The notes beneath the pieces are model-generated. The model did no database searches and had not been told where the DNA came from. It saw only the letters and a list, made by a program, of their open reading frames with translations. DNA of 63,560 nt, counting the filler, from Coriobacteriales bacterium (GTDB taxonomy: Bacteria > Actinomycetota > Coriobacteriia > Coriobacteriales > UBA8131): NCBI GenBank assembly GCA_031263105.1. It is 8 parts of 8 records of this genome, joined end to end, with 100 filler letters (N's around TTAATTAATTAA, not from the genome) between each part and the next. Parts side by side here need not be neighbours in the genome. Positions count along the whole stretch, not along the records: positions 23,985 to 33,568 come from JAISGJ010000033.1; 7 more parts are not named here. One strand, 5' to 3'. Below are positions 931 through 59,505 of this stretch, one piece after another; the first letter of the stretch is position 1; every line of letters starts with the position of its first letter. The translations under genes and the position numbers were made by a program.

Positions 931-1866
931 CTACATGAATTCCTCGACGTCGCCGACGTCGTAGCGGCCGAGTGCGTTGTCCAGCTCGTCGGTGAGGCCT
1001 TCCTCGCCGGCGGCGAACAACGTGCTCAGGTCCTTGATGAACTTGCGGTTGAGCTCCATGAGCGGCAGCTCCATGGGGCAGACGCGCGCGCACTCGCCGC
1101 ACTCGATGCAGCGGTCGCCGATGTGGAAGACGCGCGTGAGACTGTAGAAGCGGTTCTCGTTGAGGTTGTTCTGCTTGCCCTGCCAACCGGCGCGCTGCTG
1201 GTCGACGAAGCACTCGCGGCAGGTGCACACGGGGCACACCTCGCGGCAGGCGTAGCAGCGGATGCAGCGGCTGAACGCGTCGTCGAAGTGCGCACGGCGC
1301 TCCTCGCGGCTCAGCGCCTCGATGGCCTCGACCTCCGAGAAGCGCTCCTGGGTGACGGCCTCCATGATCGCGGGGTCGGGGGTGACGGCCTCGCCCAACA
1401 GCTCGTCATAGACGACGGGGTTGGGATGGGCGCAGGCCATGCAGCGGGCGAGCATCTCGCCGGTCGCGCGGTCCTTCACGCCACGACAGGGGATGCCGAG
1501 CAGGTAGACCTCGTCGCGCCTCACCTGCTTGTCGGCAATCATGCGGTTGATGCCGCGCGAGTCGCAGCCGCGCACGCAGACGGCGACCTTGTGGGCTGGG
1601 GCGGCCCCTGCCCCATCGGCACCGGAGGCGGCACGCTCGCTGACCGCAGCGACAAGGGCGTCCCTCTCCGCACTGACATACGTGGCAAGCGTGTTGACAC
1701 AGTGCTCGTTGGCGACGATGGCGCCTGCACGGGCGGCGTCCCGCACGAACAGCGGGGTGGTCTGATTGGAAAAGCGCCCGGCGCCCCAGGCGATGACCTC
1801 GCCCACCTCGCCGGATTCCAACAGCGCGCCCGCCCGTTCGCGGAGCTTGTCCTCGAGGGCTGTCAT
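931..1866 (-). CDS. flxC: FlxC-like iron-sulfur subunit (FrhB/FdhB-like)
   Basis: RGCDSR, CIRCYACREVCPVCTCREC and RCIECGECARVCP motifs; overlaps the flxD stop. Confidence 0.8.
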   Translation of the reverse strand: MTALEDKLRERAGALLESGEVGEVIAWGAGRFSNQTTPLFVRDAARAGAIVANEHCVNTLATYVSAERDALVAAVSERAASGADGAGAAPAHKVAVCVRGCDSRGINRMIADKQVRRDEVYLLGIPCRGVKDRATGEMLARCMACAHPNPVVYDELLGEAVTPDPAIMEAVTQERFSEVEAIEALSREERRAHFDDAFSRCIRCYACREVCPVCTCRECFVDQQRAGWQGKQNNLNENRFYSLTRVFHIGDRCIECGECARVCPMELPLMELNRKFIKDLSTLFAAGEEGLTDELDNALGRYDVGDVEEFM

Positions 1867-2426
1867 TGTGCATCACCGCCTTCGGAGTGACGTGGCGGGA
1901 GGGAGTCAATCGGCGCTTTCCCGGGGTCGGGCACGTAGGGGCCCAGCTTTCGTACCTGCTCGCAGACCGAGATGACGGTGTCGCGGAACTTGCCCGCCTC
2001 GGAACCCGATATCCAGCGCACCTGGAAGCGCTCCGGCTCGAGGCCGGTGTACTCCAAGAGGCGCTTGAAGGCCATGAGGCGGCGCTTGGCGAAGTAGTTG
2101 CCCGAGACGTAGTGGCAGTCGCCCGGGTGACAGCCGCAGATCAGCACCCCGTCCACGCCCTTGTTGAGAGCGGCGAGCGCGTGCTGGGGGTTGACGCGCC
2201 CCGAGCAGGGGACGCGCAGCACGCGCACGTTCGCGGGGTAGTTCATGCGGTTGAGGCCCGCGAGGTCGGCCCCGGAATAGGTGCACCAGTGGCAGGCGAA
2301 GGCCAGGATGGTGGGCTCGAAGTCGGGGGGCGGGGCGGCGGGGGCGGCCCCGGCACCTGTGGCGGCGACAGCTGGGGCGGGCTCGGCAACGATAGGGCCG
2401 GTCTTCTCCCCATTTATCCCTGGCAT
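1863..2426 (-). CDS. flxD: MvhD/FlxD 2Fe-2S subunit
   Basis: FACHWCTYSGADLAG, VPCSGRV and GCHPGDCHY motifs. Confidence 0.9.
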   Translation of the reverse strand: MPGINGEKTGPIVAEPAPAVAATGAGAAPAAPPPDFEPTILAFACHWCTYSGADLAGLNRMNYPANVRVLRVPCSGRVNPQHALAALNKGVDGVLICGCHPGDCHYVSGNYFAKRRLMAFKRLLEYTGLEPERFQVRWISGSEAGKFRDTVISVCEQVRKLGPYVPDPGKAPIDSLPPRHSEGGDAQ

Positions 2427-4396
2427 AGTGCGGCCACCTCTCTCATGATCTGTTCGTCCGAGAAGCCGCGCAGGTCCATTGCGCCGGGGCGGCAGGCGAC
2501 GGTGCAGGCGCCGCAGCCTTGGCAGAGCCCTGGGTTGACCTTCGAGACGGTGCGCGTGACGTGGCGGGAGTTCTCGCGCAGGTGCACCTCTTCAAGCGTG
2601 ATGGCCGTGTAGGGGCAGATCGCCACGCAGGCGCCGCAGCCGTTGCAGAGCGCCACGTCGGAGGCGGCGATCATCGCGTTGGACTCGAGCTCGTCCTTGC
2701 TGAAGAGGATGGCGACCTTCATGGCGGCGGCCGAGGCCTGCGCCACGCTGTCGGGGATGTCCTTGGGGCCCTGGCAGGTGCCCGCGAGGTAGATGCCGCC
2801 GGAGTTCGTCTCGACGGGGCGCAGCTTGGGGTGCGCCTCGGAAAGCCACAGGTCCTTGTCGCGCGTGATGCCGAGCATGCTGCCGAGGCGGTCGGCCTCG
2901 GGCACGGGCACCATGGCCGTCTCGAGCACCACCATGTCCGCATCGACGCTCACCTGCGCGCCGGAGAGCGTGTCCTCGCCCTGGCAGACGAGCTTGCCTC
3001 CCTGACGGTATATCTTCGAGACGCGCCCGCGCAGGTAGTGCGCGCCGTCGCGCTGGGTGTTCATGTAGAACTCGTCGTAGCCCTTGCCCGGCGTGCGCAC
3101 GTCCATGTAAAAGACGTAGCACTTCCCGTCGGGGACCTTGTCGAGGTACTGATGGGCGTGCTTGGCGCCATACATGCAGCAGGCGCGCGAGCAGTAGCTC
3201 TTGCCCTTCTCGGGGTCGCGTGAGCCGACGCATTTGATGATGACGACGCTCTTGGGCTCGGCATTGTCCGAGGGGCGCAGGATATGGCCCTCGGTCGGCC
3301 CGGAGGCGTTGACGAGGCGCTCGAACTGCAGGCCGGTGACGACGTCCTCGTAGCGCCCGCCGCCGTACTCGCCGTACAACTCCGCCCAGTCGATGAGCTG
3401 ATACCCGATGGCGACGACGATGGCGCCGTAGGTCTCCGTGGCCACCGTGTCCTCGTCCTCGAAGCGGATGGAGCCGACCGGGCAGAGCTTCTCGCACACG
3501 CCGCACTTGCCGGTCACGAACTTGCGGCAGTGCGCGACGTCGATGGTGGGCTTGCTCGGCACCGCCTGGGCAAAGGGCTTGTAGATCGCCTTGCGCTGCC
3601 CGAAGCCCTGGTCGAACTCGCTCTCCACCTTGACGGGGCACTTCGTCTCGCAGAGCCCGCAGCCGGTGCAGCTGGCGTAGTCGACGTACTTGGCCTTCTC
3701 GCGGATGGTCACCTCGAAGTTGCCCACGTAGCCGCTCACCTTCTCCACCTCGGCAAGCGTCTTCACGGTGATGAGGGGGTGCGTGCCCACGTCCGCCATC
3801 TTGGGCGTGCAGATGCAGGCGGAGCAGTCCATCGTGGGGAAGGTCTTGTCGAGCATGACCATCTTGCCGCCGAGCGAGGGCTCGCGCTCCACGAGCGTGA
3901 CGGGGTAGCCGGCATCGGCGATGTCGAGCGCGGCCTGCATCCCGGCGATGCCGCCGCCGATGACGAGCGCGCGCTTGTTCACGGGGATGGTCGTGGTGAA
4001 CAGCGGCGTGTCGCGGTCCACCTTGGCGGCCGCCATCCTCACGAGGTCGATGGCCTTTGCCGTGCCGTCCCCCTTGTCCTTGTGCACCCAGGAGCACTGC
4101 TCGCGGATGTTGGCGATCTCGAGCATATAGGGGTTGAGCGCCGTGTCGCCGAGCATCTTGCGGAAGGTGAGCTCGTGCATGCGCGGCGAGCAGGAGGCGA
4201 TGACGATGCGGTCGAGCCGGTGCTCGATGATGGCCTCTTTGATCGACTGCTGCCCGGGATCCGAGCAGGTGTACTTGTTCGTGTCCGCGAGAACGACGTT
4301 GGGGAAGGTGCGCGCGGCCTCGGCGACGCGCTCCACATCGACGGTGCCTGCGATGTTGGAGCCGCAGTGGCAGATGAAGACGCCTATCCTGCTCAT
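2414..4396 (-). CDS. hdrA: Heterodisulfide reductase-like subunit A (FAD, 4Fe-4S)
   Basis: RIGVFICHCGSNIAG, IGGGIAG, DKTFPTMDC, YCSRACCMY and QGPKDIPDSV motifs. Confidence 0.95.
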   Translation of the reverse strand: MSRIGVFICHCGSNIAGTVDVERVAEAARTFPNVVLADTNKYTCSDPGQQSIKEAIIEHRLDRIVIASCSPRMHELTFRKMLGDTALNPYMLEIANIREQCSWVHKDKGDGTAKAIDLVRMAAAKVDRDTPLFTTTIPVNKRALVIGGGIAGMQAALDIADAGYPVTLVEREPSLGGKMVMLDKTFPTMDCSACICTPKMADVGTHPLITVKTLAEVEKVSGYVGNFEVTIREKAKYVDYASCTGCGLCETKCPVKVESEFDQGFGQRKAIYKPFAQAVPSKPTIDVAHCRKFVTGKCGVCEKLCPVGSIRFEDEDTVATETYGAIVVAIGYQLIDWAELYGEYGGGRYEDVVTGLQFERLVNASGPTEGHILRPSDNAEPKSVVIIKCVGSRDPEKGKSYCSRACCMYGAKHAHQYLDKVPDGKCYVFYMDVRTPGKGYDEFYMNTQRDGAHYLRGRVSKIYRQGGKLVCQGEDTLSGAQVSVDADMVVLETAMVPVPEADRLGSMLGITRDKDLWLSEAHPKLRPVETNSGGIYLAGTCQGPKDIPDSVAQASAAAMKVAILFSKDELESNAMIAASDVALCNGCGACVAICPYTAITLEEVHLRENSRHVTRTVSKVNPGLCQGCGACTVACRPGAMDLRGFSDEQIMREVAALCQG

Positions 4397-6682: not shown

Positions 6683-6782
6683 NNNNNNNNNNNNNNNNNN
6701 NNNNNNNNNNNNNNNNNNNNNNNNNNTTAATTAATTAANNNNNNNNNNNNNNNNNNNNNNNNNNNNNNNNNNNNNNNNNNNN
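6683..6782. other. Artificial contig linker; others at 14894-14993, 23885-23984, 33569-33668, 37591-37690, 45706-45805 and 60671-60770
   Basis: N runs around TTAATTAATTAA, which has stops in all six frames. Confidence 0.98.
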
Positions 6783-14856: not shown

Positions 14857-14993
14857 TCGGGAAATGGCTATCCTACCTTTAGGATATACATAGNNNNNNN
14901 NNNNNNNNNNNNNNNNNNNNNNNNNNNNNNNNNNNNNTTAATTAATTAANNNNNNNNNNNNNNNNNNNNNNNNNNNNNNNNNNNNNNNNNNNN

Positions 14994-23884: not shown

Positions 23885-24009
23885 NNNNNNNNNNNNNNNN
23901 NNNNNNNNNNNNNNNNNNNNNNNNNNNNTTAATTAATTAANNNNNNNNNNNNNNNNNNNNNNNNNNNNNNNNNNNNNNNNNNNNAGTGGGGAGCGAGGCG
24001 CACGCAGCC

Positions 24010-25002
24010 TCATCCGTGGCTGAAGGTCTCCCGGTGGCGGATGCGCCTGCGGTAGATCTGCTCGCCGTAGTCCTTGCCTCCCGGGACGCCGATGGCGTCG
24101 GCGCGGCAGTGCTGGCAGTGGCGGAACACCGCGAGGTGCCTCTCGGCCTCGGAGCGCGCCCGGTCGGTTTGTGCGCAGGTCGGCGCGGGCACCTTCGACA
24201 TCTTGGCACAGGGAATCAGCGGGATGACGTTGTACAGCCCCGCACCCGCCTCCTTGACGGCGCGGGCGACCTCCCCTATCCGCCTGTCGTTCACCCCGGG
24301 GACGAGCACGGTGTTCACCTTGACGAGCATGCCGCGCTCGACCGCCGCGCGGATGCCCGCGAGCTGTTTGGCGATGAGCATCCCTGCGGCCTCGATGCCG
24401 GTGTGGAGGCGGCCGTGGTAGACGACGTGGTCGTTGATCCGCGCGAGCAGCCCTGCATCGACCTCGTTGACCGTGACGGTGAGGGTGTCGACGCCCACCT
24501 CGGCAAGCTCGTCCATCCGCTCGGCCAACAGCAGGCCGTTCGTGCTCATGCAGCGGATCATCTGGGGGAAGCGCTCCTTGACGAGACGGAAGGTCTCCAC
24601 GGCATGCGGGGTCGCCAACGGATCGCCCGGACCTGCGACGCCCACCACGGCAAGCTCCGGCGCAAGCTCCAGGGCCCGGGCGACGACCTCGAGGGCCTCT
24701 GGAGGGCCCAACACCTCCGCCGTGACGCCGGGACGCTGCTCCGTCGCATTGAGGGAGCGCTCGCAGAAGCGGCAGGCGATGTTGCAGCCGGGAGCGACGG
24801 GCAGATGGATGCGCCCCTTGTTGTTGGGCTTGCCCAAGGCGAAGCAGGGGTGCCTGGCAGAGACGAGCCCGAGCAGGCCGGTCCCCGGGCAGGGCTGCGC
24901 CCCCCGCGTGAGCGCCCCGGCCTCGGACGGGGCCGCCTCCTTGGTGCAGCCGCATCCCGCGCACGACCGTTTGCTCTCCCTATGCACGGTCTCCCTATGC
25001 AT
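24010..25002 (-). CDS. NifB-like radical SAM protein without a NifX domain (MarB-like)
   Basis: HPCF, RIHLPVAPGCNIACRFC, GVAGPGDPLA, STNGL and HCQHCRADA. Confidence 0.9.
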   Translation of the reverse strand: MHRETVHRESKRSCAGCGCTKEAAPSEAGALTRGAQPCPGTGLLGLVSARHPCFALGKPNNKGRIHLPVAPGCNIACRFCERSLNATEQRPGVTAEVLGPPEALEVVARALELAPELAVVGVAGPGDPLATPHAVETFRLVKERFPQMIRCMSTNGLLLAERMDELAEVGVDTLTVTVNEVDAGLLARINDHVVYHGRLHTGIEAAGMLIAKQLAGIRAAVERGMLVKVNTVLVPGVNDRRIGEVARAVKEAGAGLYNVIPLIPCAKMSKVPAPTCAQTDRARSEAERHLAVFRHCQHCRADAIGVPGGKDYGEQIYRRRIRHRETFSHG

Positions 25003-26338
25003 AGCTGCCCAGAACCACGTCGTAGAGGTCCTCGATGACGCGCAGGCCGCCGCTGAAGCCTACGTAGTTCGTCGTCAGGACGAGGCGGTAGGGGCATGGT
25101 GCGGCGGCGGGGAGAAAATCGTAGCCCTTCTCCTTCGCAAGCTCCTTGTCCCAGCCGCTGCCGATGATGAGGCCGCGCCCCTCGTGCGCAAGCCCGCGTA
25201 TGACACGCTGGGACGTCCCTGCGTCGGGGTCGAAGACAAGCGGTATCTCGCGCCTCGCGCTCGTCGCGGCGAGGTCGGAGCGGATGGCGGCCTTGAACTC
25301 CTCGGGCGTGTTGTCGACGACGAACTGCTCCTTGGGCACGATGCCGACCTCGTGCAGCAGGAACCTCGACAGCCCCACGACGTAGCCTGCGTCGTGAAGG
25401 ATGTGGACGTGGTTCGGCAGCCCGTAGCGGAACTCGAGCAGGAAGGTGGCGAGGTTGTCGATCTCCTCGTAGAAGCCGTGCTCCTCGTGCGCGATGAGGG
25501 CATGCACGCGCCGTTCGTCGAGAGGTGCGCCCTGTGCTGCGGCAAAGGCGGCCAGCCCCTCGAGGAAGCGCGTCGTCTCGTTCGCGCCGATGGGCGGGTA
25601 GCCGAAGCGGTAGAAGGGCTGCCCGTACTTCCGTTCGAGATGCTCGACGATGGGCAGGCCGTACCAGGGCGACACCAGCACGTTGAAGTTCGCCGCAGGG
25701 ATGGACCGCCACTCCGCAACGCCGCCGCTCTCGGGCCCGAACAGGATGTTGACTTTGAGGCCCATGGCTTCGAGCAGGCGCTTGTACTCGCGCAGGTTGC
25801 CCTTCCAGAACGGGTCCTGGTACGGCAACGAGGCGAAGACGTTGACGAGCGCCTTGTCGCTGCGCGGCAGGAAGTCGCCCACGAAGCCGTCGACGTACTG
25901 GTCGACGACGGCGCAGACGACGTCGGAATGCGCCACGAAGTTGTTGTGCTTGAAGCCTGCGGTCTCCACATGGACGAGCGGCCTGCCCTGCTCCGTGAAC
26001 TCGCCCGCCACGCTCGCCACGTCGTCGCCCACGATGTCGGCCGTGCAGCCGGTGAGGACGACCTGCAAGTCGGTGTCGAGCACCCGGTAGGTGTTCGCGA
26101 TGATGCTGCGCAGGCGCTCTGCGCCGCCGAAGACGACCTCCGTCTCGCTGAAGTTCGTGCACGGCGAGGTGCTGCCCCCTGCGTATCCCGTCGAACGCTC
26201 GTAGAAGCCCTGCACCATCGTGCCGCAGCCCGGGCCCGAATGCAGGATGGGCACCGCACGCGGGATGGCCACGACGGATTGCAGCGCACCGATGGCGCAG
26301 GTGTAGCGTTCATGTTCGATGAGGCCAGAGGCAGACAC
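24995..26338 (-). CDS. Nitrogenase-like component 1 beta subunit (group IV, MarK-like)
   Basis: RYTCAIGA, HSGPGC, VVFGG and LTGCTADIVGDD. Confidence 0.85.
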   Translation of the reverse strand: MSASGLIEHERYTCAIGALQSVVAIPRAVPILHSGPGCGTMVQGFYERSTGYAGGSTSPCTNFSETEVVFGGAERLRSIIANTYRVLDTDLQVVLTGCTADIVGDDVASVAGEFTEQGRPLVHVETAGFKHNNFVAHSDVVCAVVDQYVDGFVGDFLPRSDKALVNVFASLPYQDPFWKGNLREYKRLLEAMGLKVNILFGPESGGVAEWRSIPAANFNVLVSPWYGLPIVEHLERKYGQPFYRFGYPPIGANETTRFLEGLAAFAAAQGAPLDERRVHALIAHEEHGFYEEIDNLATFLLEFRYGLPNHVHILHDAGYVVGLSRFLLHEVGIVPKEQFVVDNTPEEFKAAIRSDLAATSARREIPLVFDPDAGTSQRVIRGLAHEGRGLIIGSGWDKELAKEKGYDFLPAAAPCPYRLVLTTNYVGFSGGLRVIEDLYDVVLGSYA

Positions 26339-26461
26339 GGCTCGGTCCTTTCTCGGTCGGATTCTTGGCGCGGCCCAGGTGCGGGGCGGGTGCGCTCCGC
26401 CCGGATGCGCTCGCGTGCCCGGCGGCCCCGTGCCCGGCGGCCCCGTGCCCGGCGGCCCTGC

Positions 26462-28003
26462 TCAGGGTACCGGCTCCAAAAAATAGGAGGGCCGCTGCTC
26501 GAGCCACCATGCGGTGTACGGGTTGACCGCGTGACGGGCGAGGTTCGTGACGAACTCGTTGTTCTCCATGACCTCGAGGATGGCCTTCCCGTAGTTCACG
26601 ACGCCCCGGTAGCCCATCCCCCACTGTTCGTCCCCGACGAGCAGCGACGGGATGCCGAGCTTGGCGCCCCACAGCGTCATGCCGCCGTGACGGGCGAGGA
26701 GCACGTCGGGGCGCATGCGGTTGAGCACGTTGACGAGCTCGAACTCCTGCTTGTTGCAGATGCTCACCTGGGGCACGTCCCCATAGTCGCGCACGCGTGC
26801 GACCAGCGAGTCCGCCTCCTCGGAACCGATGTCGTTGATCGGGTCGTGGTGGAACAGCGCCGCCCCCCGTGCCGTCATCCCCAGCTCGCCGAGGAGGGCG
26901 AGAAGGGCGTGGCCGTGGCCGGCGCCTGCCGTCACGTAGGCGGTCCTGCCCTTGAGCCGTTTGCGAAGCCCCTCGATCTGCGGCAGGAACTCCTCGCGCT
27001 CTGCGGCGATGATGCGCTCGACCGCCTCGGGCCTGCCCAACAGCTCCCCGAGGGCACGCAGCCAGCGCTCGGTCGCCGGCACGCCGTAGGGCGGCGCCGC
27101 CCTGAGCGCGGGCACGCCGAACTCGCGTTCGAGCACGCCGCTCAGATACGAGCCGAGGGTGGTGCATATCTGCACGCTCGCAAGCGCCTCGCTCGCGTGC
27201 TCGAGCGAGTCGAGCGTCGCGTAGGGCGTGAGGTAGCTGGCCTCGACGCCCAAGGGCTCGAACCAGCGCGTGAAGACGTCGCTGCCCCAGAAGTTGATGA
27301 CGTTGACGACAGGGCGCTTCTTGCGCGGGGGCTTGATGAGCTTGCGCGCGATGCCGTGGTAGCCCGCATCGAAGCCGCTCGTCCAGACCTTCGAACGGAA
27401 GCCCTCGCAGAATATCGCCACCACCGGGATGCCGAGCTCCTCCTCCGCCTCGTTGGCGACGCCCTCCACGTCGTCGCCGATGATGCCCGAGGCGCAGGTC
27501 GTGATGATGAAGACGACGTTGGGACGCTCGCGGCCGTAGACCTCGCGGATGGCTGCGGCGAGCTTCTCGTTGCCGCCGAAGACCGTCTCGTCCTCCGTGA
27601 GGTTCGTGGAGTAGATATGGCGCTGTGTGGGCCTTTCCACCCCGCGCAACGGCGCGTTGACGCGGTAGGTGAAGGCGAACTCGTGCAAGCAGGCGCTGCA
27701 GCCGACGGGGCCGTGGCTGATGACGACGCCGTCCTGCTCGAGCGTGACCATGCAGGCGGCGTTGCCCGTCGAGCAGCCGAGGCATTGCGTGAAGCTGCGC
27801 TCGCGCTCGGAGGGGCCGCCCTGACAGGACTCCCTCACAAGCGCCTCGGCACTGCCCTCGAAGCCGGTTATCGTGTTGAGCCTGACCTCCCGCACCGCGA
27901 CCGCCGGCACCTTCAGGTTGACGGTCGGCGTGCGCGGGCCGGCGGCTGCGGCGCACGGCGTGCGCGGGCCGGCGGTTGCCGTGTCCGGGTTGACGGTCGT
28001 CAT
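26462..28003 (-). CDS. Nitrogenase-like component 1 alpha subunit (group IV, MarD-like)
   Basis: REVRLNTITGF, RSFTQCLGCS, HGPVGC, TTCASGIIGDD and CEGFRS; start at 28003 after a GGAGGAG RBS. Confidence 0.85.
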   Translation of the reverse strand: MTTVNPDTATAGPRTPCAAAAGPRTPTVNLKVPAVAVREVRLNTITGFEGSAEALVRESCQGGPSERERSFTQCLGCSTGNAACMVTLEQDGVVISHGPVGCSACLHEFAFTYRVNAPLRGVERPTQRHIYSTNLTEDETVFGGNEKLAAAIREVYGRERPNVVFIITTCASGIIGDDVEGVANEAEEELGIPVVAIFCEGFRSKVWTSGFDAGYHGIARKLIKPPRKKRPVVNVINFWGSDVFTRWFEPLGVEASYLTPYATLDSLEHASEALASVQICTTLGSYLSGVLEREFGVPALRAAPPYGVPATERWLRALGELLGRPEAVERIIAAEREEFLPQIEGLRKRLKGRTAYVTAGAGHGHALLALLGELGMTARGAALFHHDPINDIGSEEADSLVARVRDYGDVPQVSICNKQEFELVNVLNRMRPDVLLARHGGMTLWGAKLGIPSLLVGDEQWGMGYRGVVNYGKAILEVMENNEFVTNLARHAVNPYTAWWLEQRPSYFLEPVP

Positions 28004-28013
28004 ACGCTCCTCC

Positions 28014-28922
28014 CTAGATCGCTTCCTGCTGGCCGCGGATCTCGCCGCTCTCCATGGCGACGAGCTGGTCCGCCCAGAGCGCACCCCACTCCTTCAGCTC
28101 GTCCGTCGAAAGGGGCACAGGCACCGTCGACGCGGCATGCCCGTCGATGCGGCGGGCGAGCTCGCGGTAGACCTTCGCCTGCCCGCTTTCCGGCGCGGCC
28201 TCGACGACCGTCTTCCCGGAAAGCTCGCTCTGCGTGACCGCAATCGAGCGCGGCACGTACTGCATGACCTGCGTATGCGTGCGCACGGCGAAGTCGTCGA
28301 CGATCTCGCGCTGGAAGGGGTGGCTCATGCTGTTCGCGATGACGCCGCCGAGCAGGGCCCCTCCCGCGTTCGAGTACTTCTGGATGCCCTTGAACAGGTT
28401 GTTCGCTGCATAGATCGCCATGAAGTCGGCGCTGGTCACCGTGAACACGTGCTGGGCGATCCCCTCGCGGATGGGCACGGCGAAGCCGCCACAGACCACG
28501 TCCCCCAGCACGTCGTAGATGACGTAGTCCAAGTCGAGTTCCTCGAAGATGCTCTGCTGCTTGAGGAGCTGCACGGCCGTGATGATGCCGCGCCCCGCGC
28601 AGCCGACGCCCGGCGCAGGCCCGCCCGCCTCGACGCAGTAGATACCGTTGTAGCCCTCGAAGATGGCGTCGTGGGCATCGACCTTCCTGTGTTCGCGGAG
28701 AAGGTCGAGCACCGTGGGGATGTAGCTGCCGTCCCGCAGCGTGTTCGTCGAGTCCGCCTTGGGGTCGCAGCCGAACTGCATGACCCGGTAGCCCTCGTCG
28801 GAAAGCGCCGCCGACAGGTTGGAGGTCGTCGTCGATTTGCCGATGCCGCCCTTGCCGTAGATGGCTATCTGTTTCGGCTGTCTTCTGCCTTGTGGTGCCA
28901 CGGGGCTTCCTTTCATCGTCAA
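28014..28922 (-). CDS. NifH-like Fe protein (group IV, MarH-like)
   Basis: [31 protein letters not shown] and [14 protein letters not shown]. Confidence 0.92.
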
Positions 28923-28997
28923 GGAAACCCTATTCTATACTATTCTTATAAGATTGCAAGGTAAAACTTGGCAGGCACGCCCTTTGTCACACCGGAT

Positions 28998-29152
28998 GTT
29001 ACTGTTCACGCCCCCACTGTCATCCCGAGCCTGCCGAGGGATCCTCGACCGCGCAAGCGGTCGACCGCAGGTCGAGGGGCCCCTGGCCTGCCGTTGGACA
29101 CTGCGTGTTCAAAGATTCCTCGGCGAGCCTCGGAATGACAGTGGGGTGTGAC
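28998..29152. repeat. Family A element whose right terminus is interrupted
   Basis: Left end GTTACTGTTCACG; right end GGGGTGTGACC lacks the usual ...CAGTAAC. Confidence 0.8.
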
Positions 29153-29396
29153 CACATATGACCCTCGCCCCTGTCAAGTGGCAATAATGGGCCGGCCCCC
29201 CTGACCCGTCGGAAAGGGGGTCGGCCCGTATATCCATTCCCTGCTTTCGGAGTCCAAAGTCGTGCCTGTCGCAGGCGCCCGTCTGGCACTCACATATTCG
29301 TGGATACGGCCTTGCCGCCCACACTACAATGCTTCGGCTGGGGCTCTTCGCTTCAAGTGGTAAGTCAGTAATCGTGCATACCGAAAAGTCCGGCGC
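29153..29396 (-). mobile_element. Putative non-coding right-end remnant of an IS110-family element
   Basis: The minus strand has ATCCACGAATATG, GC hairpins and a TTGACA...GTCATATG end, recalled as similar to IS110 ends; no transposase present. Confidence 0.45.
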
Positions 29397-30287
29397 ACGT
29401 GGGCCGGTGCCGCGCGCGACTGGTTCTCCGCCAACGGGTCCTGCAACATCTTCGACCGTGGGGCCATCACGGGCGACCCGACGAACGGCAACGTGGGCGA
29501 CGCACCGGACCAGCAGGGCGGCGGCAACATGAACTTCTGGTGGCCGGGCTCCCAGCCTTTCCTGCGCGTCAATGCGTTCGGCCAGCGCTTCTGCAATGAG
29601 GACGGCCCCTATGACGTGGCCTTCAACCTGGCCTGCATGCAGCCGGGGCATTTCTGGTGGCAGGTTTTCGACGATTCCAGCTGGGAGGACGTCGTGGCCT
29701 TTGACACCACGATCTGCAGCCGCGTCGTAGCCAAGGAAGGCGCCAAGAACTGTCTGCTGCTGGGGCAGTTCTACCCCTGCACTTCCGACGAGGAGTGGCA
29801 TTCCGTGTACCTTGACCCCAATGTTGAGAACGGCGTGCTGATCAAAGCGGACACGCTGGAAGGGCTCGCGGACCTCATGGAGTTTGATGAGGATACCAAG
29901 GCGACCTTCCTGGCAACGGTAAAGCGTTACAACGACCTGGCAGCCGGAGGTGCCGACCTCGACCACGACAAGGCGCCTTGGCGCATGACCTCCCTCGATG
30001 CGCCGCCGTATTACGCCTGCAAGCTGACAGGCTGGCTTCTCACCACCCTCTCGGGCATTCGGGTGGACGGTCGCTACAACGCCCTCACTTCTGAAGGCGT
30101 CCCGATCCCCGGCCTTAAAATGGCAGGCCTCGACCACGGCGGGTTCTTCAGCGGCATGTACGCCCAGTACTACGGAGGCCTCAATATGGCGCACAACCTC
30201 CTTGCCGCCTGGCTCGGAGCAAAAGACATCATGGGCCTTGAGCCACCGGTGGCCCTGCCCGGCGTCCAAGCCGCATACCAGGCCTGA
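29397..30287 (+). pseudogene. 5'-truncated FAD_binding_2 flavoprotein (C-terminal half only)
   Basis: WAGA..D...FDRG, GQRFCNE, PPYYA, TLSGIRVD and PIPGL; no Tat signal or GxG FAD motif. Confidence 0.75.
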
Positions 30288-30383
30288 TTCTCTCAGCGCG
30301 AAAGGAGAGTCGCTTCAGAAGGGAAGGTGCGCTGGGGAGGCAGGGATTGATCATCGCCTCCCCAGTGAGAGCAGTCACGTAAC

Positions 30384-30806
30384 CTACAATACAAAGGGAT
30401 TCAGCAGCTTTACTCCAAGAACCGTCTGACCGTGCGCCATGTCCTCGGTGTAGACGACTTGGCAGCCGGCCGATGCCGCCGCTGACAGTATCAGGCTGTC
30501 ATAGAACGAGTAGCCGGACACGAAGTGAAGGTCTACGGCCTCCTTGATCATCGCAGGCGTTATCTGGACGATGTCGAGTTTGAAGAACTCGTCCAACAGC
30601 AGCAGCATGTCGGCTTCGGAAAGCGAGAGCTTCTTGATGCAGGCGTTTGAGAACTCCTGCAAGACCTGTGTGGAGACAAGGATCCGGTGCGCATCGGCCG
30701 CATCCCGTATGAGGTCTCTGGCTATCCCCTGCTTTCTGGCATCTGCGGCGTCATGGGCATAAAAGAGGATGTTCGTATCGAGGAAGACCTTCTGCCTACC
30801 GCTCAT
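30384..30806 (-). CDS. vapC: PIN-domain (VapC) toxin
   Basis: FLDTNILFYA, STQVLQEF, SFYDSLI and YTED. Confidence 0.9.
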   Translation of the reverse strand: MSGRQKVFLDTNILFYAHDAADARKQGIARDLIRDAADAHRILVSTQVLQEFSNACIKKLSLSEADMLLLLDEFFKLDIVQITPAMIKEAVDLHFVSGYSFYDSLILSAAASAGCQVVYTEDMAHGQTVLGVKLLNPFVL

Positions 30807-31020
30807 GAAGCTCCTCGCGGTCGAACTGCCAGCCCTGTGAGTCGCCCTGTATCTGGTGCGCGACCGCATGGTAATGGGAGTACCAGCCGCCTTGGCCGTC
30901 GGCGGTGACGTCTGCGAGGAAGCCACGAATCATCTCGTTGAGCGACGTGCCGTTCTTCTGGGCGACCGACCGCGACTTCTGCAAGAGGTCGCCGTCGATG
31001 GCAAGAGTGATATTGCTCAT
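30796..31020 (-). CDS. RHH-type antitoxin (VapB/DUF6364-like)
   Basis: NITLAID..LL...TSLNEMIR...FDREELHER; overlaps vapC. Confidence 0.8.
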   Translation of the reverse strand: MSNITLAIDGDLLQKSRSVAQKNGTSLNEMIRGFLADVTADGQGGWYSHYHAVAHQIQGDSQGWQFDREELHER

Positions 31021-31195
31021 ACGCTGCTCCTTTCTGTTGCACATAGTACACATAAGGCATATATGTGTCAATATGCGTGCTACCTGCACCGTTAGGTTAT
31101 AAATGGCGACTATGAAACTTCGAATAAGGTTACATCCGACTCTTTGACACCACTGCCTACAGCACAGGCGCTCCTTTCAAGCCTGTACTAGTTCC

Positions 31196-31450
31196 TTGAG
31201 AGGACGACCGGCGCTCGTACCGCAGAGAAGCAGCGTCGTCTTTGACTATGCCGACGAGAACCTCTTTACTTCCGAGGTAAAGCGCGTTCAAAACATGGTT
31301 GCAATGGCCGAGGCAAGCGGCGAGCCAATGAAATCCTGTTTTAGCTACGCCGAACTGGAAAAGGTATTGGAGGACGCAGGGTGGCTCATCTACGGGCATC
31401 TATCCCCCGCAGAGATTGAAACCCGCTACTGTGCTACACTTTCCCCATGA
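31196..31450 (+). pseudogene. C-terminal fragment of a class I SAM-dependent methyltransferase (LCM/YktD-like)
   Basis: SSVVFDY...GEPMKSCFSY.ELE..L...G..I..HLSP.EI; no SAM-binding N-terminus. Confidence 0.6.
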
Positions 31451-31872
31451 GACTTCCTACTGGATACTTTAGCGCTGTTCAAATCGTTGCTTACATCAAC
31501 GAGACGCTTGGCGGTGCGTCCAATCAAGACGACATCGACGCGGTTTTGCGGGTACTCCCCAAGCTGATCTATGATTGGCGCGGCCTTACCGATGATGAGT
31601 TGGCCGTTGCGATCGCCGAGCCGCCCTTGTCGGGGTGCCCTGAGTTCGATGCGCTTTTTGAGGGCATTGTCGCCTATTTCTTCCACATCGAGTTGCGGCG
31701 AAACGCTCCCGAGTGGGCAAGCCGCACACGCTTGACGAGACAGTGGGTTGCTCGTCGCAGCCAAGTTGAAAAAGGCGGCGAGCGACTCTACTTCAAAATT
31801 TGGCAAAACACGCCGATTGAGATGCTGGAGCGCGGCCTGCTGTTCTCCCGTTCAGAGTTGACCTTGCTATGA
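31447..31872 (+). CDS. Hypothetical protein, partner of the downstream nucleotidyltransferase
   Basis: EPPLSG..FDA, PEW and TP..M.ERG; ATGA overlap. Confidence 0.6.
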   Translation: MRLPTGYFSAVQIVAYINETLGGASNQDDIDAVLRVLPKLIYDWRGLTDDELAVAIAEPPLSGCPEFDALFEGIVAYFFHIELRRNAPEWASRTRLTRQWVARRSQVEKGGERLYFKIWQNTPIEMLERGLLFSRSELTLL

Positions 31873-32453
31873 CGAACGCCGGCTCTTTCCCTGCTGCGGA
31901 GTTTGACCATGACGTCTTGCTCGATTTGCTTCAATCCTTTGATGAGAAATTGGGGCAAGAGGGCTTTCACGGCAGTATCTTTATAGTCGGCGGAGCAGCT
32001 ATGGCACTTGAGTACAGCGCGCTTCGTGTTACAACGGACATAGACGCCATCTTTAACCCGAGAAGTGACATTGAGGGGATTGCAGCGTCGTTTGCCGAAG
32101 AACGGGGGCTGCCAAAGGATTGGCTCAACACTCATGTCTCGGGAATGCTTGGCTATTTTAAGACTGACGAGCAGGCACGCACTGTTTTCAGTGGTGAGAA
32201 CCTGACTGTTTCTGTTGCTTCCCCTGAGTACCTTTTCGCCTCCAAGGTTATTGCGGGACGAGACAAAGACCGTGACGACGCGGCTATACTTGCCAAGAAG
32301 CTGGGGGTGTCTACCGTCTCTGGTATGCAGGTCATTGTTGAAAGATATTATCGCGGCGAAATAACTCCCGGTGAGTATCGCGGAGATGTGATTCTCTCGA
32401 TGCTCCAAGACATTGAGGATATGATTGCCGACCCTGCCAAAGACCACGATTGA
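31869..32453 (+). CDS. DUF6036-like nucleotidyltransferase (putative toxin or Abi)
   Basis: IVGGAAM, R.TTDIDA, DWLN and SK..AGRDKD.DD. Confidence 0.75.
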   Translation: MTNAGSFPAAEFDHDVLLDLLQSFDEKLGQEGFHGSIFIVGGAAMALEYSALRVTTDIDAIFNPRSDIEGIAASFAEERGLPKDWLNTHVSGMLGYFKTDEQARTVFSGENLTVSVASPEYLFASKVIAGRDKDRDDAAILAKKLGVSTVSGMQVIVERYYRGEITPGEYRGDVILSMLQDIEDMIADPAKDHD

Positions 32454-32719
32454 CGGTAGGGGTGGGGTATGGATGATAAAAGGGGGACGGGGCTACTGTC
32501 CCACTTGCGCGGCGACAACCGTTTGGAAAAAGCAAATGCCCTGTTCAGGATAGGGCTTTTGAGAACTCCGAACTAAACTCAAAATCTAATAGTCAACGAA
32601 ACGGGTGATACCGGCTGCGGTATCCGACGTCCCTTCCGCTGGTATAATTTTCCTGCCAACAAAGAATTTGCCCAGGCATCCAAGCTGCCGACACCTTGAA
32701 GATAGCGCACTATGCGAAA

Positions 32720-33568
32720 TCAACGTTGTGACATTTTACGGTATTCCCTCGGCAGCAGACCGGTTATTTCTCTGAACAACTCCGAGAAATGACTGGCGTT
32801 TTGATAGCCTACCATCTGGACAACATCCCCGATTGAAAACCCGGTATGGGCAAGCAGGTACTCGGCGTGGCTCACACGCCGTTGCTGTACGTATTCCGTA
32901 ATGGTGCAGCCATGATGACGCTTGAAGGTGTTCTTCAGTTTCGTTGTTCCCATACACGCGATTTTGGCCAACCGTTCAATCGGGAGGTCGTGAGCGAAGT
33001 GGTCGTTGATGTATGCGGAAACATCCTCGATTCGTCGGGAGTCCTCAGAAGATAAAGCCGCTCCACCTGATGGGCGGTGCTTGCAGAACCCGACCATCAA
33101 AGAGATTGCTTCCGCCACTTTGCCTTCGTAGAACAGCTTTGCCTCAATCCCATCCCCGCGATAGCTTTTCACCTGTGTAAGCAGGCGAACCATCTCAGGG
33201 AAATGCTCTGTTTGGTCAACCGCTTGGAACGCATGAACAAGGTTCTCGAATTCTTTTGGGTATTGTTTCAAAAGATACCCTTCGTAATATCCGGGGGAGA
33301 CTTCGATACCGATAGACCGGACAGGGATTTTCTTATGCATCAATACACGGTACGGCGTTTCCTTGCCGATAAACGCCTTGACGCACCCTGCGCTCACCCG
33401 CCGGTAGGGAGAAAGCTCATCGGCAGAGAACGACTCGTAATAGGTGATCCCCAGGCAGCCCGGCAACAAGAATTCAAACAGGGAATCCTCATGGAGATAG
33501 AAATCATGTATTTTTATGTTGAACAAATCCTTTTGCCCGTATATCCAAAAGGTTCCGTCGCCTGTTTC
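32720..33568 (-). CDS. AraC family regulator (PchR-like), 5' end lost in the gap
   Basis: LAKIACMGTTKLK..FK...VGYQNASHFS..FR...G.LP; lower GC than the genome average. Confidence 0.85.
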   Translation of the reverse strand, partial: ETGDGTFWIYGQKDLFNIKIHDFYLHEDSLFEFLLPGCLGITYYESFSADELSPYRRVSAGCVKAFIGKETPYRVLMHKKIPVRSIGIEVSPGYYEGYLLKQYPKEFENLVHAFQAVDQTEHFPEMVRLLTQVKSYRGDGIEAKLFYEGKVAEAISLMVGFCKHRPSGGAALSSEDSRRIEDVSAYINDHFAHDLPIERLAKIACMGTTKLKNTFKRHHGCTITEYVQQRRVSHAEYLLAHTGFSIGDVVQMVGYQNASHFSELFREITGLLPREYRKMSQR

Positions 33569-33668
33569 NNNNNNNNNNNNNNNNNNNNNNNNNNNNNNNN
33601 NNNNNNNNNNNNTTAATTAATTAANNNNNNNNNNNNNNNNNNNNNNNNNNNNNNNNNNNNNNNNNNNN

Positions 33669-37545: not shown

Positions 37546-37690
37546 CTCATAGGCCCGCCCCCGTTGTCGACAGTGCGCATAGGCCCGCCCNNNNNNNNNN
37601 NNNNNNNNNNNNNNNNNNNNNNNNNNNNNNNNNNTTAATTAATTAANNNNNNNNNNNNNNNNNNNNNNNNNNNNNNNNNNNNNNNNNNNN

Positions 37691-53010: not shown

Positions 53011-53300
53011 GTTACTGTACACACCCCACTGTCATCCCGAGCCTGTCACCCACTGTCATCCCGAGCCTGTCACCCACTGTCATCCCGAGCCTGTCACCCA
53101 CTGTCATTCCGAGCCTGTCGAGGAATCCTCGGCCGCGCCAGCGGTCGACCGCAGGTCGAAGGGCCCCCTGGCCTGCCGTTGGACACTGCGTGTTCCGTGG
53201 GCCTGTCGGCCCGTCCTCGCTGAAAACGCGGTGCGTTTTCCGGGCGCTCGGACCCAAAGATTCCTCGGCGGGGCTCGGAATGACAGTGAGGGGTGCAACA
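53011..53300. repeat. Family A element with four 24-bp arm units and a nested family B module
   Basis: CCCACTGTCATCCCGAGCCTGTCA units; extra segment at 53195-53255. Confidence 0.85.
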
Positions 53301-59268: not shown

Positions 59269-59303
59269 CTCCTCCCCCAGCTACCGACCGTGTCGGGACA
59301 CCT

Positions 59304-59505
59304 GTTACACGTCACACCCCCACTGTCATTCCGAGCCCCCACTGTCATTCCGAGCCCCCACTGTCATTCCGAGCCCCCACTGTCATTCCGAGCCCCGCCG
59401 AGGAATCCTTGGACACGCAGTGTCCAACGGCAGGTCGCAGGGCCCCTCGACCTGCGGTCGACCGCTTGCGCGGTCGAGGATCCCTCGACAGGCTCGGGCT
59501 GACAG
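59304..59505. repeat. Family A element with four 19-bp arm units
   Basis: ACTGTCATTCCGAGCCCC units. Confidence 0.85.

Follow-up and report, generated by a model that had tools for sequence, protein, structure and literature searches.

The decayed right end of a probable RNA-guided, IS1111-type insertion sequence at a MITE-like repeat terminus in a Coriobacteriales genome

The segment described here lies between a nitrogenase-like gene cluster and a broken flavoprotein gene in a Coriobacteriales bacterium (GenBank assembly GCA_031263105.1; 250 contigs, 2.9 Mb, 86% complete, 6.5% contaminated). The window, by which we mean the whole 63,560-nucleotide stretch of DNA that was analysed, joins eight contigs, and the contig of interest (JAISGJ010000033.1, here C113) occupies positions 23985-33568. 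On the far side of the repeat that adjoins the segment, the nitrogenase-like cluster (24995-28922, minus strand) contains a NifH-family gene (28922-28014; Pfam Fer4_NifH, E = 3e-100) and two Oxidored_nitro genes (28084-26462 and 26338-24995). A long plus-strand open reading frame (24434-28237) gives no Pfam hit and probably just shadows these genes. Past the truncated flavoprotein gene there are genes for a PIN-domain protein (30384-30926, minus strand), a DUF6036/AbiEii-like nucleotidyltransferase (31869-32453, plus strand) and an AraC-type regulator (32720-33526, minus strand). The elements that a repeat finder listed as D1 and I1-I23 ("100% identical") are runs of N around TTAATTAATTAA that join the eight contigs, and they have no biological content. 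Coordinates of the features are given in Table 1.

Table 1. Features of the segment and its surroundings (window coordinates unless a contig is named; RE, right end)
Feature	Position	Strand	Remarks
Filler joins	6683-6782, 14894-14993, 23885-23984, 33569-33668, 37591-37690, 45706-45805, 60671-60770		
Left terminus of the adjoining family-A repeat copy, GTTAC-TG-TTCACGCC	28998..29012	+	Example of an unoccupied target
Family-A MITE-like repeat body	29005..29152	.	GGTGTGAC at 29145-29152 is the right end; insertion at this terminus
Core dinucleotide TG (CA on the + strand)	29153-29154	-	Repeat/IS junction
IS-derived DNA, ~244-245 nt	29155-29398	-	Boundaries refined in this analysis
RE terminus of the IS, ...GGGCGAGGGTCATATG	29155..29170	-	Carries the RE half of the sub-terminal inverted repeat
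TTGACA	29172..29177	-	Candidate -35 box of a circle-junction promoter
GC-rich terminator-like hairpin, then AUUAUUG	29189..29227	-	
Left donor guide (LDG), ATATG+TG = RE end + core	29291..29297	-	Tracks core and RE end across elements
Hairpin 2, stem of the donor-binding loop	29300..29322	-	Base stem of 5 pairs, 3 compensatory, 95.6% of cells paired
CCCCAGC, 3' strand of the outer stem closing the target-binding loop	29337..29343	-	5' partner deleted here
Left target guide (LTG), TTAC+TG = left flank of repeat terminus + core	29366..29371	-	
Hairpin 1, stem within the target-binding loop	29374..29398	-	9 pairs, 6 compensatory, 96.3% of cells paired
5'-truncated flavoprotein gene fused to the broken IS edge	29400..30287	+	Pfam FAD_binding_2, positions 315-407 of 414 only
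Footprints (10-bp insertions at repeat termini)	C124:5701, C135:8006, C176:3076, C202:101, C228:8111	+, -, +, +, +	None in the window

On the minus strand, the segment meets the repeat in the sequence GGGTCATATG-TG-GTCACACC (29170->29145). The preliminary description read this junction as CATA-TG, and the junction indeed sits at the TG of a family-A repeat terminus. The TTACTG, ATATGTG and TTGACA motifs that it reported are also where it placed them. Its limits for the segment needed a small correction, since the end given as 29396 is 2 nt short and the positions 29153-29154 (plus-strand numbering) form the core. The DNA that we assign to an insertion sequence (IS) stops at the 5' base of hairpin 1, and homology to a second copy on contig C157 ends at the same base.

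Family-A repeats are abundant in this genome, and their intact ends have the form GTTAC-TG-... that had been proposed, the usual continuation being GTTAC-TG-TTCACACC. The whole assembly contains 372 termini with CACRCC..CACTGTCA. Among the 307 regex-matched termini of the assembly, the spacer from GYTAC to CACRCC is TGTT in 70, ACGT in 41, AGTT in 33, TGCT in 12, TGGT in 8 and TGAGGT in 5. The left terminus of the repeat copy that adjoins the segment is of the commonest type in the assembly. The predicted insertion site TTACTG.TCACA occurs 108 times in 2.9 Mb, compared with 0.35 occurrences expected from base composition; these sites are mostly at repeat termini, with the repeat signature following 80 of the 108. 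Elsewhere in the window, family-A repeats at 47424-47585, 53025-53143, 59298-59411 and 63326-63559 carry a variable number of 18-24-nt tandem units (CCCCCACTGTCATTCCGAG and variants), with at least 13 of them at the window end.

The copy on C157 is the only other one in the assembly, and the two are 91% identical (246/271). Both abut a repeat terminus at ...GGGGTGTGA(C/A)CA|CATATGACC, and the C157 copy runs from the terminus to ...CCGGCGCAC, which corresponds to window position 29398. On the minus strand of C157, the segment copy is preceded by an open frame ending ...KPVNVAKVAVASEMVRWVWATGLL... that constitutes the last 64 codons of a transposase. This frame matches positions 304-336 of 343 in the NCBIfam profile NF033542, "IS110 family RNA-guided transposase" (a weak match, E = 0.0015). 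Over 44 aa it shares 50% identity with the C-terminal part of the transposase at locus L042, one of the relatives described below. Because the C157 copy lies 3' of this remnant, the segment can be identified as the 3' tail of a minus-strand insertion sequence. C157 also has the sequence GTTGGGG, which is the 5' partner of the outer-stem strand CCCCAGC. The repeat copies beside the two segments differ (their best match is inverted, 93% vs 75%, and the C157 repeat has an additional 18-nt unit), and the two copies are therefore old insertions that probably arose separately. At C157:3087-3196 (locus L011) the loop of hairpin 1 carries a 75-nt insertion composed of 40 nt of other sequence and a 35-nt duplication of the right-target-guide region. 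The transposase remnant on C157 stops where another family-A repeat begins with a complete terminus, and this suggests past mobility of the repeat itself.

Homologues of the segment occur in related genomes. Matches were found in 6 of 61 genomes, the window's own included; they always cover the first ~75 nt of the query and often lie at contig ends, as expected for a multi-copy element. A scan for the pattern of conserved ends returned 20 loci in the genome collection and 8 in metagenomes, nearly all of them from Coriobacteriia to judge by record titles. The pattern required TTGACA, so that the scanned loci are no test of its conservation; the hexamer is conserved in the RE ends that were aligned. 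The 14 scanned loci with at least 1.3 kb upstream of the end comprise four with an intact IS110-family transposase directly upstream (L032, L042, L050 and L051), one with a frameshifted transposase (L047), six transposase-less relics and three chance-like matches. Homologous tails lie directly 3' of the transposases of L042, L032, L050, L051, G054 (L019) and C96, which score 165-224 bits against NF033542 (cut-off 140). In G054 the element was assembled as one collapsed contig (L019), and three left and three right junctions lie on other contigs. C96, from the window's own assembly (~1780-3300, minus strand; locus L004), appears to be intact and encodes a 357-aa transposase that is 33% identical to that of L042. 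The preliminary description had suggested a search for copies next to DEDD IS110 transposases, and both the C157 remnant and the intact genes of the relatives are such cases. Its claim of an IS110-like origin holds, because the segment is homologous to the right-end non-coding region of IS110-family elements with RNA-guided transposases.

Several other loci were set aside or are of separate interest. L035, L046 and L052 were considered as relatives, but their ends have no hairpin or IS-like tail and tblastn finds no transposase beside them, so these chance-like loci were left out of the comparisons. L030 was dropped as redundant with L051, whose insertion site it shares. Seven transposase-less relics (L026, L033, L039, L043, L045, L048 and L049) were left out of the guide matrices. 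These right-end relics lie at conserved positions on Olsenella/Atopobiaceae-type contigs, with L039, L043, L045 and L048 in one set and L026, L033 and L049 in another, and they have the flank AGCACCCAGCGAGACGG in common, with one base different in L043. Related genomes therefore retain fossil ends of this IS clade. The right flanks of some related copies are themselves repeats, with GGGGTCGGATCYCCCTGTCA found three times in one MAG (L031, L034 and L041) and AATGACAGGGGG in L038. Homing to host repeats seems to be common in this IS clade. The window's assembly encodes another IS110-family transposase at C29:15119-15595 (locus L003; 395-aa frame, DEDD domain 109 bits), which tblastn does not relate to the L042 transposase (E <= 1e-3) and blastn does not match to the segment.

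The full-length relatives show how the intact element is arranged. The RE sequence CATATGACC..TGTCAAG...CAA is common to the window copy and its relatives. In C157, C96, L042, L032, L047, L050, L051 and G054, the non-coding region after the stop codon is ~270-400 nt and the left ends (LE) are ~40-150 nt. The relatives have sub-terminal inverted repeats (ATATGACC.../...GGTCATAT) that match at 13-14 of 16 positions between LE and RE in full-length elements, with ATATGACCGATAAC in G054. The window copy keeps only the RE half, and the LE half of its lineage survives as a stub on contig C65. Because the left end is short, a long region follows the transposase and the inverted repeats are sub-terminal, we assign the arrangement to the IS1111 type as it is outlined in PMC11187229 and PMC11208160. 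The proposed parallel to IS110 and IS621 is consequently correct as to the IS110 family but not as to the type, since here the RNA gene lies downstream of the transposase. An IS621-like bridge RNA element was considered and rejected, because the RNA region is 3' of the transposase in every relative and in C157 and not in the left end.

The hairpins noted earlier in the segment are poorly supported when it is folded alone (z = -1.45; 19 of 200 shuffles fold equally well), but both hairpins of the centroid structure show compensatory changes in an alignment of nine copies. RNAalifold predicts two hairpins from this alignment, and 9 of their 14 predicted pairs have compensatory changes. With an outer stem (GTTGGGG and CCCCAGC) that was added by hand, there are 21 proposed pairs in which 90.6% of cells are paired. 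Twelve of these are changed on both sides, compared with 5.8 in shuffles, and none of 500 shuffles reaches 12. Shifting the partner by 1-3 columns lowers pairing to 30-50%. The outer stem itself has seven pairs, three of which are changed on both sides (78.6% of cells paired). A further hairpin occurs at the place of the terminator-like one in L042, L050, L047 and L032, with a different sequence. No curated Rfam family covers the RNA region. At the gathering threshold, Rfam finds only two tRNAs in the window, and at E up to 1 it gives two weak, unrelated hits in the four loci with the RNA region, neither of which is in that region.

Around hairpin 1, the layout of the nine copies is constant. 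A conserved CGCG is followed by 8-9 nt, a spacer of 1-2 nt, hairpin 1, 2 nt and then 6 nt. The 8-9 nt are the reverse complement of the element's own core and right flank, and we refer to them as the right target guide (RTG). The 6 nt are the last four bases of the element's own left flank plus its core dinucleotide. This LTG occupies nucleotides 3-8 after hairpin 1 in 9 of 9 copies. The guide that is complementary to the top strand is 5' of the guide that is complementary to the bottom strand.

Matches between guides and their own targets are much better than those between guides and the targets of other elements. Cognate LTG matches out of 6 are 5, 5, 6, 6, 6, 6, 5, 5, 5 and 5 (mean 5.4), with a non-cognate mean of 2.63 (n = 54). 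Cognate RTG matches out of 9 are 7, 8, 7, 7, 9, 8, 6 and 7 (mean 7.4), with a non-cognate mean of 3.95 (n = 56). The non-cognate maxima (6/6 and 8/9) equal the cognate ones where targets are alike, as in C96, G054 and L051. The C96 element sits in the palindrome GCTTCCCT-AG-GGAAGC, and the G054 element targets the similar TCCCT-AG-GGA. In C96, the LTG CCCTAG matches at 6/6 and the RTG GCTTCCCT at 8/8 (8/9 in the matrix). L047 has an LTG match of 5/6 and the RTG GCTTTCGCT at 9/9, and in L050 the RTG ATTCGACT matches at 8/8 by eye (8/9 in the matrix). In L042, the LTG CTAAAG matches at 6/6 and the RTG at 7/9, and the core positions of this RTG are not complementary to the element's own AG core. 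The LTG of the window copy matches GTTAC-TG at 6/6, and its RTG is deleted. The C157 copy has the LTG TTTCTG (5/6) and the RTG TGTGAGCA, which pairs with TG-TTCACA at 7/8 plus a possible G-T wobble.

A left donor guide occurs 2 nt after hairpin 2 and corresponds to the last five RE bases plus the core. It reads ATATG-TG in the window lineage, ATATG-AG in L032, L050 and G054, and ATATC-AG in C96, whose RE ends in ATATC; L042, L047 and L051 have one mismatch each. The comparison with relatives therefore bears out two readings of the preliminary description. In the nomenclature of PMC11208160, TTACTG, which it took for a guide to the missing flank and TG, is the LTG by its covarying position, and ATATGTG, which it matched to its own junction, is the LDG because it changes with the core and RE end across elements. 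The caveat that matches of 6-7 nt could be due to chance applies to the window copy alone, where the chance of finding a particular 6-mer or 7-mer within 244 nt is ~0.02 or ~0.004 (arithmetic from base composition, for motifs picked post hoc). The matches become significant only through the relatives, since in eight other copies these two positions hold the respective element's flank and core. The search for a right donor guide compared, by eye and in eight elements, the 8-10 nt preceding hairpin 2 with the reverse complement of core and left end, and no convincing fit was found. ATTG(T) fits ACAAT in four of the eight, the core positions misfit, and C96 and L047 do not fit.

TTGACA may serve as the -35 box of a promoter that forms when the ends are joined. 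Across the RE-core-LE circle junction, the hexamer is followed after 18 nt by TGnGACAAT (by eye), and hybrid junction promoters have been published for IS621 (PMC11208160) and ISPpu10. In the present chromosomal context, a promoter scan finds no promoter that uses TTGACA. The scan also supports no outward promoter from the relic into the nifH-like operon.

Independent scars elsewhere in the assembly suggest that the element once occupied further repeat ends, and they confirm the left side of the insertion, which neither relic retains. A repeat terminus on C65 has the sequence GTTAC-TG-ACAATATGACCC, followed by a join to the repeat interior. This is a left-end stub whose first bases are those of the L042, L032 and C96 left ends. 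Five other termini contain a 10-bp insert of the form GTTAC-core-ACA(A/C)(T/C)ATG-core-TT. One example, GTTAC-TG-ACAATATG-TG-TT, consists of the first three left-end bases, (A/C)(T/C)ATG and a second core. The two cores of these footprints are TG/TG on C135, C202 and C228, AG/AG on C176 and CG/TG on C124. In the relatives, the core on both sides of the element is AG in L042, L047, L051 and C96, and L032 has AG on the left and AA on the right. By the evidence of the stub and footprints, the IS was inserted at the core of repeat ends that already existed, and copies have since been lost. Excision in the IS110 family is usually described as precise. The 10-bp scars may derive from deletion between the ATATG sequences of both ends or from an aberrant recombinase event.

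Missing from the window copy are the RTG, the 5' outer-stem strand, the transposase gene and the left end. Neither a transposase nor a left end is found at the locus, and position 29398, the other edge, interrupts the RNA gene and bears no LE motif. Motif searches, tblastn and nhmmer likewise recovered no full-length copy of the lineage in the 86% complete assembly, but only C157, C113 and C96. This broken edge could in principle be an assembly chimera at 29398/29399, with the segment really continuing into a complete IS and an intact flavoprotein gene elsewhere. The fragmented, incomplete and partly contaminated source assembly would favor such an error, and the breakpoint is also a branch point in public contigs. 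The region is present in public contigs of two runs (X1 and X2) labelled termite gut metagenome, however; a third run, X3, contributed none. A 1888-nt contig from X1 (0 differences, depth 24.7) reaches from the gene into the segment by 30 nt, over bases that are specific to the C113 copy. With a bridging threshold of 31 nt per side, this contig has 30 nt on the IS side of the join, and the interior of the segment is represented in the same run by a variant with 5 differences. We conclude that the join is likely to be real and that a chimera is very improbable. Loose ends in the two runs show other copies that continue into the RTG region, one of which reads TGTGAACA, a perfect complement of TG-TTCACA. 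The source community thus probably contains more complete copies.

These further copies, together with the intact LTG and LDG of the window copy and the published stand-alone small-RNA modules of ISPpu9/ssr9 (as reported in PMC12288879), would fit a reading of the segment as a working, non-autonomous guide-RNA module. Such a module would have its own transcript, use a transposase that a full-length copy elsewhere in the cell or population supplies in trans, and move or recombine repeat termini. The absence of the RTG and of the 5' outer-stem strand argues against this, as does the lack of a left end, without which there is no donor site. In addition, the minus strand has no predicted promoter-like site upstream, the assembly contains no cognate transposase, its two copies are 9% diverged, and the C157 copy has the 75-nt insertion and duplication in its hairpin 1 loop. 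The earlier suggestion of "a remnant or non-autonomous bridge RNA" thus stands for the remnant, whereas a working non-autonomous RNA at this locus is unlikely, if slightly less so than a chimera. Since the missing RTG, transposase and left end are explained by deletion, the window copy is immobile and most likely inert. A MITE or non-autonomous IS derivative that has both ends and no transposase was also considered and rejected, because only the right end is present. The least credible reading is that of an ordinary intergenic regulatory region in which the guide matches arose by chance. Its position between the divergent nifH-like operon (28922<-) and the flavoprotein reading frame, and the insignificant fold of the segment alone, would suit a regulatory region, but the homology to transposase-linked tails in C157 and other genomes extends over the whole length, the guides covary by position, and the junction at the core dinucleotide is sharp.

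We conclude, with a probability of about 0.88, that 29155-29398 on the minus strand is the decayed right end of an IS110-family, IS1111-type insertion sequence that was inserted by RNA guidance at the TG of a family-A terminus. The assignment to an IS rests on homology, because both the window locus and the assembly are without the transposase gene and left end of this lineage. The original target would have been 5'-GTTAC|TG|TTCACA at a repeat terminus. In the intact element, a DEDD transposase gene would have stood between a short left end (ACAATATGACC...) and ~300-400 nt of 3' non-coding DNA. This region is predicted to encode a bridge/seek RNA in the order RTG, hairpin 1, LTG, linker, hairpin 2 and LDG, and it would be followed by the terminator-like hairpin, TTGACA, the sub-terminal inverted repeat and the end CATATG. 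By the mechanism of published families, the element would leave as a circle joined at the core. One RNA loop may then pair with both target strands and the other with the circle junction, and the transposase would exchange strands at the core. In the simplest history, a single later deletion took the RTG, the transposase gene and the left end together with the 5' half of the adjoining flavoprotein gene.

IS1111-type insertion sequences with a seekRNA have been described for ISEc11, ISPa11 and ISKpn4 (Siddiquee et al. 2024, PMC11187229). As far as that description extends, the relatives of the window copy resemble these elements in that a long non-coding region follows the DEDD transposase gene and the inverted repeats are sub-terminal. 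The guides also resemble those of seekRNAs, in which two short segments match both target strands, the top-strand-complementary segment is 5' and the target is specific to the element. The relatives differ in that their transposases have 357-383 aa, compared with the 330-350 aa that the same paper quotes for the IS1111 family, and they form a Coriobacteriia clade known here from sequence. The window copy further differs from IS1111-type elements because it is a truncated relic.

The bridge RNA of IS621 and the IS110 group, as presented by Durrant et al. (2024, PMC11208160), similarly has target and donor loops, with left and right guides and a 2-nt core, and IS621 likewise has a -35 box in its right end. 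Within the scope of that account, IS621 is unlike the window lineage in that its RNA is encoded in the left end, ahead of the transposase, its guide order is reversed, its sub-terminal repeats are 2-3 bp and its core is CT. ISPpu9/ssr9 of Pseudomonas putida provides another parallel, since it is described in PMC12288879 as an IS110-family element in a genomic repeat (REP) with stand-alone small-RNA modules elsewhere in the genome. According to the same source, transposition does not require Ssr9, which moves as a circle of its own. In contrast to ssr9, the orphan copies here look like deletion products, because they have no second end and one edge is inside the RNA gene. The target of the window lineage is the terminus of a ~150-bp MITE-like repeat with hundreds of copies. 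This differs from the case of an IS1111-family element whose reported target is a terminal inverted repeat belonging to a different mobile element.

An activity of this clade that has gone unrecognised might also underlie both the 10-bp scars and the orphan copies of the guide RNA. It could be either an imprecise route of excision through the ATATG present at both ends or the use of orphan guides in trans by a transposase from full-length copies that persist in the community. We consider this improbable, though a little less so than a functioning module at the window locus itself. If either activity were real, the hundreds of repeat termini would be a network of RNA-addressable recombination sites.

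The window lineage and its relatives provide a natural, internally controlled example of an IS1111-type guide-RNA layout from a little-studied Coriobacteriia clade, in which nine copies with different targets place the target guides and the left donor guide. The preferred reading also matters for annotation, since it accounts for the truncated flavoprotein gene and for an otherwise anonymous stretch of intergenic DNA upstream of a nifHDK-like operon. Because the window copy is most likely inert, practical value lies in the full-length relatives L042, L032, L051 and C96, which are candidates for programmable recombinases. The RNA-guided IS would home to the terminus of the MITE-like repeat that is most abundant in its host, where 108 candidate sites are available. 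By homing to repeat termini the element would avoid genes, and this explains why elements and relics are found beside repeats.
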